Source of the DNA: Escherichia coli
GTDB lineage: Bacteria; Pseudomonadota; Gammaproteobacteria; Enterobacterales; Enterobacteriaceae
Assembly (NCBI RefSeq): GCF_003334785.1
Contig: NZ_QOWV01000062.1
DNA: 1,333 bases
Reading direction: 5' to 3' (one strand)
Below the pieces are notes generated by a model. That model had not been told where the DNA came from. It ran no database searches and saw only the letters and a program-made list of their open reading frames with translations. Positions 1 to 1,333 of the stretch are shown here, piece after piece (positions within the stretch are counted from its first letter, which is position 1; every line of letters begins with the position of its first letter). Position numbers and translations under genes: made by a program.

Positions 1-138
1 AGGTGTTTGCTGTTGTTCAATGTATTGGCGGATGACGGATATTGGCGCACCTCCGCAGCTACTGGCAAAATAGCCAGGACTCCACAAAACGCCTTTGTAG
101 TAATACCTGACTGCAATATCTGGTCGATCTCGTCGCAG
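1..138 (-). pseudogene. tnpA: C-terminal remainder of tnpA, in the same frame directly downstream of the TGA at 139-141; open to the window edge
   Basis: Minus-strand codons immediately after the TGA, in the same frame, read LRRDRPDIAVRYYYKGVLWSPGYFASSCGGAPISVIRQYIEQQQTP. This resembles the conserved TnpA C-terminus (LWS.SYF...GG...RQYIEQQ), including the helix carrying the catalytic tyrosine (Tyr codon at 22-24, minus strand). There is no stop before position 1. Confidence 0.75.
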
Positions 139-426
139 TCACCTACCCGATACGCCTTTGAGGCTGTTTACCAGACTGGATATCGCCAGTTTGGGAGGAT
201 AGTTAATTAACAAATGGACGTGATCTGGTTCGCCATCCATTTCAACCAGTTCAGCTTCAAAATAAGCACATACATTTGAAAAGTAAGTGCGTAGTTTTTC
301 TGTCGCGTCATGGTCAAAAATCTGACGTCGGTATCTGGTGACAAAGACCAGGTGAACATGCATCAGGAAAACACAATGCCTTCCACGCCGGATATCGGTT
401 TCTTTTTTCACAGACCAAAGTATCAT
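139..426 (-). CDS. tnpA: IS200/IS605-family Y1 (HuH) transposase TnpA, 95-aa N-terminal segment ending at a premature in-frame TGA (139-141)
   Basis: ATG is the reverse complement of 424-426. The translation MILWSVKKETDIRRGRHCVFLMHVHLVFVTRYRRQIFDHD...PDHVHLLINYPPKLAISSLVNSLKGVSGR contains the His-hydrophobic-His motif (H-V-H, minus-strand codons at 214-222) and an upstream HVHLVFVTRYRR strand, both typical of IS200-type TnpA. At 95 aa the ORF is too short for an intact TnpA (about 130-155 aa). Confidence 0.85.
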   Translation of the reverse strand: MILWSVKKETDIRRGRHCVFLMHVHLVFVTRYRRQIFDHDATEKLRTYFSNVCAYFEAELVEMDGEPDHVHLLINYPPKLAISSLVNSLKGVSGR

Positions 427-433
427 TTGGCCT

Positions 434-1189
434 GTGAAACGACTACAAGCATTTAAATTCCAGTTAAGACCCGGTGGTCAACAGGAGCGTGAAATGAGGC
501 GCTTCGCAGGCGCATGTCGTTTCGTTTTCAATCGTGCTCTGGCACGTCAGAATGAGAATCATGAGGTCGGTAATAAATACATCCCTTACGGGAAAATGGC
601 TTCCTGGCTGGTTGAGTGGAAAAATGCCACTGAAACGCAATGGCTTAAAGATGCCCCGTCACAGCCATTGCAACAGTCACTGAAAGACCTTGAGCGGGCT
701 TACAAAAACTTCTTCCGGAAGCGGGCTGCTTTTCCCCGATTCAAAAAGCGGGGACAGAATGATGTATTCCGCTACCCGCAGGGCGTTAAGCTCGATCAGG
801 AAAACAGCCGTATTTTTCTGCCGAAACTGGGCTGGATGCGCTACCGGAACAGCCCTCAGGTCACGGGTGTTGTGAAAAATGTCACTGTCAGCCAGTCCTG
901 CGGTAAGTGGTACATCAGTATTCAGACAGAAAGTGAAGTATCAACTCCGGTTCACCCTTCAGCATCAATGGTCGGGCTGGATGCTGGCGTGGCTAAACTC
1001 GCCACGCTGTCAGATGGCACAGTCTTTGAGCCTGTAAACAGTTTTCAGAAAAACCAGAAGAAGCTGGCGAGACTTCAGCGACAGTTAAGCCGCAAGGTCA
1101 AATTCAGCGACTGCATTCCTGTATCGCAAATATCCGCAGGGACTACCTTCACAAAGTCACAACGACCGTCAGCAAAAACCACGCAATGA
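434..1189 (+). CDS. tnpB: TnpB (IS605 OrfB-type RNA-guided RuvC-like nuclease), N-terminal 251-aa segment in frame 2; the last ~25 residues are out-of-frame read-through ending at TGA 1187-1189
   Basis: GTG start at 434-436 with no ATG or other start upstream in frame. The N-terminus MKRLQAFKFQLRPGGQQEREMRRFAGACRFVFNRALA matches the conserved TnpB N-terminal pattern. Further conserved blocks follow: WLKDAPSQPLQQSLKDLERAYKNFF, FPRFKKRG, FRYPQG, VTVSQSCGKWYISI, the RuvC-I block VGLDAGVAKLATLSDG (Asp codon 980-982) and KLARLQRQLSRKVK. After about codon 1106-1108 the frame-2 translation (DCIPVSQISAGTTFTKSQRPSAKTTQ) loses all resemblance to TnpB. Confidence 0.88.
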   Translation: MKRLQAFKFQLRPGGQQEREMRRFAGACRFVFNRALARQNENHEVGNKYIPYGKMASWLVEWKNATETQWLKDAPSQPLQQSLKDLERAYKNFFRKRAAFPRFKKRGQNDVFRYPQGVKLDQENSRIFLPKLGWMRYRNSPQVTGVVKNVTVSQSCGKWYISIQTESEVSTPVHPSASMVGLDAGVAKLATLSDGTVFEPVNSFQKNQKKLARLQRQLSRKVKFSDCIPVSQISAGTTFTKSQRPSAKTTQ

Positions 1190-1333
1190 TAGTCATTGAG
1201 GATTTGAAGGTCAGCAACATGTCAAAGTCAGCAGCGGGTACGGTCAGCCAGCCGGGGCGCAATGTCCGGGCAAAATCAGGTTTAAACCGTTCGATACTGG
1301 ATCAGGGCTGGTATGAAATGCGCCGCCAGCTTG
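1102..1333 (+). pseudogene. tnpB: TnpB C-terminal continuation in frame 1, carrying the RuvC-II motif; runs off the window end
   Basis: Frame 1 is open from 1030 to the window end. From about 1102 it reads IQRLHSCIANIRRDYLHKVTTTVSKNHAMIVIEDLKVSNMSKSAAGTVSQPGRNVRAKSGLNRSILDQGWYEMRRQL. This matches the conserved TnpB segment (ARLH..IAN.R.DFLHK......N..IVIEDLNV.GM...........GW.EF.RQL as I recall it from ISDra2-type TnpB), with the RuvC-II Glu codon at 1198-1200. The start coordinate is approximate because the frame junction cannot be placed to the base. Confidence 0.78.

Follow-up and report, generated by a model that had tools for sequence, protein, structure and literature searches.

The window, that is, the whole stretch of 1333 bases of Escherichia coli DNA analysed here, is occupied by two divergent transposon genes, both of them pseudogenes. 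A tnpA pseudogene encoding a Y1/HuH transposase lies on the minus strand (1..426), and about the first three quarters of a tnpB pseudogene lie on the plus strand (434..1333). The two start codons face each other across a gap of 7 bases, TTGGCCT (427..433), which RefSeq annotates in the same way in three strains. In the chromosome that contains the window exactly, the RefSeq PGAP annotation marks the two genes as 'internal stop' (tnpA) and 'frameshifted' (tnpB).

The tnpA frame is opened by an ATG at position 426 and reaches the left edge of the window; its final two codons and stop fall 6 bases to the left. The translated product covers the whole of the Pfam model Y1_Tnp (E 6.6e-41) and scores 144.8 bits against the NCBIfam model transpos_IS200, for which the cut-off is 55. 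It can be aligned with the solved TnpA structures 2F4F, 2EC2 and 2A6M (ISHp608) and 2XM3 (ISDra2), with homology starting at residue 11-13. The starts adopted for tnpA and tnpB are the most upstream possible in their frames, and the true tnpA start may be a GTG at codon 6, in which case 22 bases would separate the two start codons. The codons of the HuH motif, His69-Val70-His71 (CAC GTC CAT, 214..222, minus strand), align with PDHIHLF of the solved TnpAs. The codon for the catalytic tyrosine, Tyr119, is at 70..72 on the same strand, where LWSPGYFAS aligns with LWTRSYFVA of 2F4F and 2EC2. This codon is 3' of a premature TGA at codon 96 (139..141, minus strand), which is followed by a C; the intact O157 copy has TTA (Leu) at that codon. 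Beyond the TGA the frame stays open to its normal end. As read from the translation, the TnpA product would end at codon 96, before the catalytic tyrosine. At the far end of the gene, the natural stop, TAG, is replaced by CAG (element position 60, 6 bases left of the window) in the copies at loci L002, L005, L006 and L007, which extends the frame. The CAG variant is found alongside either allele of codon 96, TGA or TTA, which suggests recombination between copies.

The tnpB frame is opened by a GTG at 434, and the reading frame extends to window-equivalent position 1608. Its product matches the NCBIfam model guided_TnpB at 263 bits (cut-off 100) and the Pfam models HTH_OrfB_IS605 (3.8e-13) and OrfB_IS605 (6.4e-22), and homology to solved TnpB structures starts at residue 3-5. 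The intact TnpB of the same element aligns with ISDra2 TnpB (8H1J, 8BF8, 8EXA; E about 1e-53), and its Asp183, the Glu of VIEDL and the Asp of NADVN align with D191, E278 and D361. These residue numbers are those of the ISDra2 protein and agree with the alignment count. Only the first two RuvC codons are within the window, the third Asp and the zinc ribbon lying to its right, where they were examined in the matching chromosome. The RuvC-I aspartate codon, Asp183 (GLDAG), is at 980..982 on the plus strand and aligns with D191. The RuvC-II glutamate codon (VIEDL), which aligns with E278, is at 1198..1200 on the same strand and is out of frame with the start.

Between these two codons the gene has suffered a deletion of 34 bases, which shifts the tnpB frame. 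Alignment with the K-12 and O157 copies shows that CAGCAACAACTGGCAAAAGCAGAAACGCAAAATA is absent, with the junction at about 1104/1105 (1100..1111, plus strand). The deletion falls between two CAGC microhomologies, and the junction is ambiguous within the CAGC at 1105-1108. In the original frame the first stop past the deletion is at 1187..1189 (plus strand), and the conserved residues past the deletion (QRLHSCIANIRRDYLHK...VIEDLK...) run on in another frame. The rank order of matches puts the number of records with the 34-base deletion at 24 or more but below about 140-170.

A gap of seven bases is too short for promoters, and the promoter and ribosome-binding site of each gene must therefore sit inside the other gene. 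A scan of the window for promoter and terminator consensus sequences returned two promoter-like sites, with 1.1 expected by chance, and none of them is near the 7-base junction. The scan gives no information on transcription of the divergent pair.

An earlier note on this DNA had assigned it to the IS200/IS605 family from the letters and the open reading frames, and the profile searches bear this out: the best matches are the family models Y1_Tnp, transpos_IS200, guided_TnpB and OrfB_IS605, none of the best matches lies outside the family, and the catalytic motifs align with those of solved TnpA and TnpB proteins. The gene content is that of the family, with a Y1 HuH transposase that has the HuH motif and a single catalytic tyrosine codon (in what is here a pseudogene), and that of the IS605 group, with tnpB beside tnpA, though tnpB is frameshifted in this copy. 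The same note had described tnpA and tnpB as divergent across a 7-bp spacer, and both frames are where it placed them, tnpA on the minus and tnpB on the plus strand, head to head and without overlap; the coordinates are the same in the RefSeq annotation of the three strains. The base composition that it had called near-balanced is 48.8% GC. Of the Pfam domains that it had named, Y1_Tnp and OrfB_IS605 were found, and the OrfB_Zn_ribbon domain falls outside the window. Its contrast between an IS605-group layout and that of IS608 holds in part. IS605, IS606 and IS609 are classed as 'IS605c', with separate genes in opposite directions, and ISHp608 as 'IS605a', with genes in the same direction and overlapping (PMC9956272), so that the comparison of layouts was correct; IS608 itself, however, belongs to the IS605 group.

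Several other assignments were considered and set aside. The IS607 family was rejected on its partner gene, which is a Y1 transposase and not a serine recombinase, and on a score of 114 bits for IS607_TnpB against a cut-off of 350. A REP-associated tyrosine transposase (RAYT) was rejected on a score of 24.2 bits for REP_Tyr_transpos against a cut-off of 80, and a Cas12-type assignment was rejected on curated cut-offs.

The name of the element, which the earlier note had left blank, is IS609. The window is 98.9% identical in nucleotide sequence to the annotated IS609 of K-12, with the same ends and flanks, and 98.4% identical to an intact IS609 of O157:H7. In K-12 MG1655, RefSeq annotates the homologous stretch as a feature of 1748 bases ('mobile_genetic_element IS609' / 'insertion sequence:IS609') that contains the yncK pseudogene and insQ. 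The O157:H7 copy, in which both genes are intact, is labelled 'IS200/IS605-like element IS609 family transposase'. The name thus rests on the RefSeq K-12 feature, on the PGAP product name 'IS609 family transposase' and on a table in PMC9956272. In that table (Table S1), IS609 is placed in the IS605 group with the sub-layout IS605c and cleavage sites TTAT/TCAA, and its census lists 4145 copies, spread over 2046 genomes and intact in only 1278 cases. Of 5426 complete E. coli genomes, 5015 have matches to the window, at a median of two places per genome; the collection as a whole has roughly 11,000 IS609 places. The window is almost certainly an internal piece of 1333 bases from a degenerate IS609 copy of 1714 bases, a member of the IS605 group of the IS200/IS605 family with divergent tnpA and tnpB.

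The limits of the whole element were established in the matching chromosome, where it spans 3938-5651 of the locus (L001), which corresponds to window coordinates -62 to 1651. It extends 62 bases to the left and 318 bases to the right of the window, and the end hairpins and the likely guide-RNA region are both outside the window. The earlier note had overlooked that the ends of the element lie beyond this stretch, as well as the inactivation of both genes. Copies at five loci (yedK, ydcL-ydcO, ytfA, yeaR-yeaQ and near yidH) have TTAT directly 5' of the left end and GTCAA at the right end. When the flanks of the ytfA and yedK insertions are joined, they match uninterrupted sites in other strains over 400/400 bases in one piece; the ends are therefore exact to the base, and there is no target duplication. 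Insertion 3' of TTAT without target-site duplication is as expected for the IS200/IS605 family.

Subterminal imperfect hairpins, another mark of the family, are seen at both ends in the matching chromosome and in related copies, outside the window. A core of CGTCC-TTCA-GGGCG with a T-G mispair is common to both ends. The left end of the intact O157 copy folds at -18.9 kcal/mol (z -3.85), and the right end of the K-12 copy at -15.0 kcal/mol (z -3.78). In the window's copy, substitutions break the stems at the left end (L001 3938-4000; GGGCAGGG in place of GGGCGGGG) and at the right end (5620-5651; CCTCG in place of CCACG). The left-end fold is reduced by the substitutions in its stem to -8.5 kcal/mol (z -0.28).

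This IS609 copy is between ybcM and yedK, 40 bases from the end of yedK. It is at the edge of a small block, emrE-ybcL-ybcM (L001 1182-3041), that is itself located between fliE and yedK. A version of the yedK insertion site that is free of the insertion sequence is present in 456 complete genomes. Another strain has a copy at the same ybcM-yedK locus (L004, NZ_CM151356.1) that is without the 34-base deletion and has an independent deletion of 100 bases at element positions of about 1643-1742. The element there is 1648 bases long, having lost its right-end hairpin and the tnpB 3' end to this deletion.

At least 24 independent complete E. coli genomes have chromosomes that contain these 1333 bases with 100% identity, and the two gene lesions are therefore real alleles. 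Sequencing error was rejected as their source since identical copies recur in many independent assemblies. With an internal stop in tnpA, a 34-base deletion in tnpB and a mispaired left-end hairpin, this copy lacks the features of an autonomous insertion sequence. On its sequence it is an immobile relic, for which, unaided, neither TnpA nor TnpB functions would be available.

The premature stop in tnpA has a much wider distribution than a single relic. IS609 copies with TGA at codon 96 are found at four loci with a shared haplotype (element positions 42, 91, 98, 203 and 337); besides the window, they include the copies at L002 (K-12), L004, L006 and L007. The TGA allele occurs at 3377 places in 2729 genomes and the TTA allele at 6323 places in 3891 genomes; about half of complete E. 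coli genomes have the TGA allele. The simplest reading is a single TTA-to-TGA mutation, which trans-mobilisation or gene conversion then carried to other loci. A tnpA-null IS609 lineage at several loci fits ideas of movement in trans and of TnpB as an aid to persistence.

It is also conceivable, if very unlikely, that a leaky TGA throttles the transposase and that the IS609 lineage spreads or persists in a self-attenuated state, and not only by borrowing TnpA from intact copies. Such a model would need low-level readthrough, with Trp in place of Leu96, to supply a trickle of active transposase, so that copies with the TGA are attenuated rather than dead, and this we regard as extremely unlikely. 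In E. coli, UGA followed by C is a weak terminator, and traces of full-length TnpA are possible. In favour of the model are the C after the TGA, which provides this weak termination context, the open frame past the stop, and the recurrence of the TGA on one haplotype at four loci and in 2729 genomes. Against it, intact TTA copies exist in 3891 genomes, and trans mobilisation or gene conversion explains the spread without any readthrough. In K-12, whose sole copy has the TGA, IS609 never transposed in mutation-accumulation lines (PMC5009759). The window's copy, moreover, is also damaged in its end hairpins and in tnpB. 

A scan of the element and its flanks against Rfam at a permissive threshold gave nothing inside the window and three matches beyond it, to RAGATH-18 (28.1 bits, cut-off 44.9), HgcC (21.9, cut-off 50) and sot0042 (14.4, cut-off 88). 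All three are below their gathering scores, and all are on the tnpB strand at L001 5481-5664 (window-equivalent 1481-1664), at the tnpB 3' end and the right end of the element. They sit where the scaffold of a TnpB guide RNA would be expected, and are only a hint of one. It could be proposed that the host has co-opted the element, for example to drive or regulate expression of yedK or to supply a non-coding RNA, and has retained it for that reason. Its position close to the end of yedK might be cited in favour, as might these matches, below threshold, to RNA families associated with TnpB genes, but yedK converges on the element, which consequently is downstream and not upstream of that gene; the insertion is polymorphic, as the genomes with an empty site show; and the separate deletions in different strains at the one ybcM-yedK locus are a pattern of neutral decay. 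Co-option therefore has next to no credibility, and decay of an ordinary insertion is the reading adopted here.

The last alternative takes the window's copy for a working, autonomous IS609, with apparent lesions that come from sequencing errors or can be bypassed. It is effectively refuted and has practically no chance of being correct: outside the lesions the window matches intact copies at 98-99% identity and every catalytic codon is present at the DNA level, but both lesions recur unchanged in the independently sequenced genomes described above, ordinary translation cannot bypass a 34-base deletion, and both end hairpins are weakened as well.

How an intact IS609 would work can be proposed from established work on its relatives IS608 and ISDra2. 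A TnpA dimer would bind the imperfect end hairpins on one DNA strand and would cut 3' of TTAT and after TCAA, and the strand would be excised as a circle. The circle would then be reinserted 3' of another TTAT in a single-stranded target, with no duplication, in what is termed single-strand 'peel and paste' transposition. By the same analogy, TnpB would be an RNA-guided RuvC nuclease, with a guide RNA that comes from the tnpB 3' end together with the right end of the element. It would recut the emptied donor site, composed of TTAT and the right-flank sequence, and recombination would restore the element there. On its own, the window's copy would fail at each stage, with TnpA truncated at codon 96, TnpB frameshifted and both end hairpins broken by substitutions.

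IS609 is an already catalogued E. coli insertion sequence, and the window is an ordinary inactive relic of it. Most E. coli genomes carry the element, mobile-element finders pick it up routinely, and the value of the present analysis lies in correct annotation: this copy should be counted neither among active transposases nor among active RNA-guided nucleases.

Among the known relatives, the closest counterparts are IS609 copies in other E. coli strains. The IS609 of K-12 MG1655 (1503161-1504908) resembles the window's copy in its gene order, its 7-base gap, its TTAT left flank, its TCAA right end and its TGA at tnpA codon 96. It is located between ydcL and ydcO and has an intact tnpB (insQ, 402 aa), whereas the copy between ybcM and yedK is frameshifted by the 34-base deletion in tnpB and has substitutions in both end hairpins. 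The IS609 of E. coli O157:H7 SS52 has the same architecture, with TTA (Leu) at codon 96, a TnpA of 143 aa, a TnpB of 402 aa and a strong left-end hairpin, and is likely the autonomous form. That copy (L003 2144-4293) splits ytfA, a regulator gene of the TetR/AcrR family; K-12 and 3283 other genomes have ytfA in one piece. In a plasmid collection, 1572 plasmids match the window, 855 of them at only 80-90% identity, and the plasmids are mostly from Klebsiella (780) and Salmonella (229). These matches point to conjugative plasmids as carriers of IS605-group elements that are related yet distinct.

More distant relatives share the family and the group but differ in layout or in cleavage sites. IS605 and IS606 of Helicobacter pylori have the same divergent, non-overlapping arrangement (IS605c) as IS609, and IS606 likewise uses TTAT (PMC9956272 Table S1). 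They are nevertheless distant in sequence, occur in another host, are cleaved at the right end at TTCA, where IS609 has TCAA, and have a greater length (1.88-1.99 kb). IS608 (ISHp608) and ISDra2 also belong to the IS605 group; their solved TnpA and TnpB proteins align with those of IS609, and they too end in TCAA. In contrast to IS609, their tnpA and tnpB genes are co-directional and overlapping (IS605a), and their target sites are TTAC and TTGAT.
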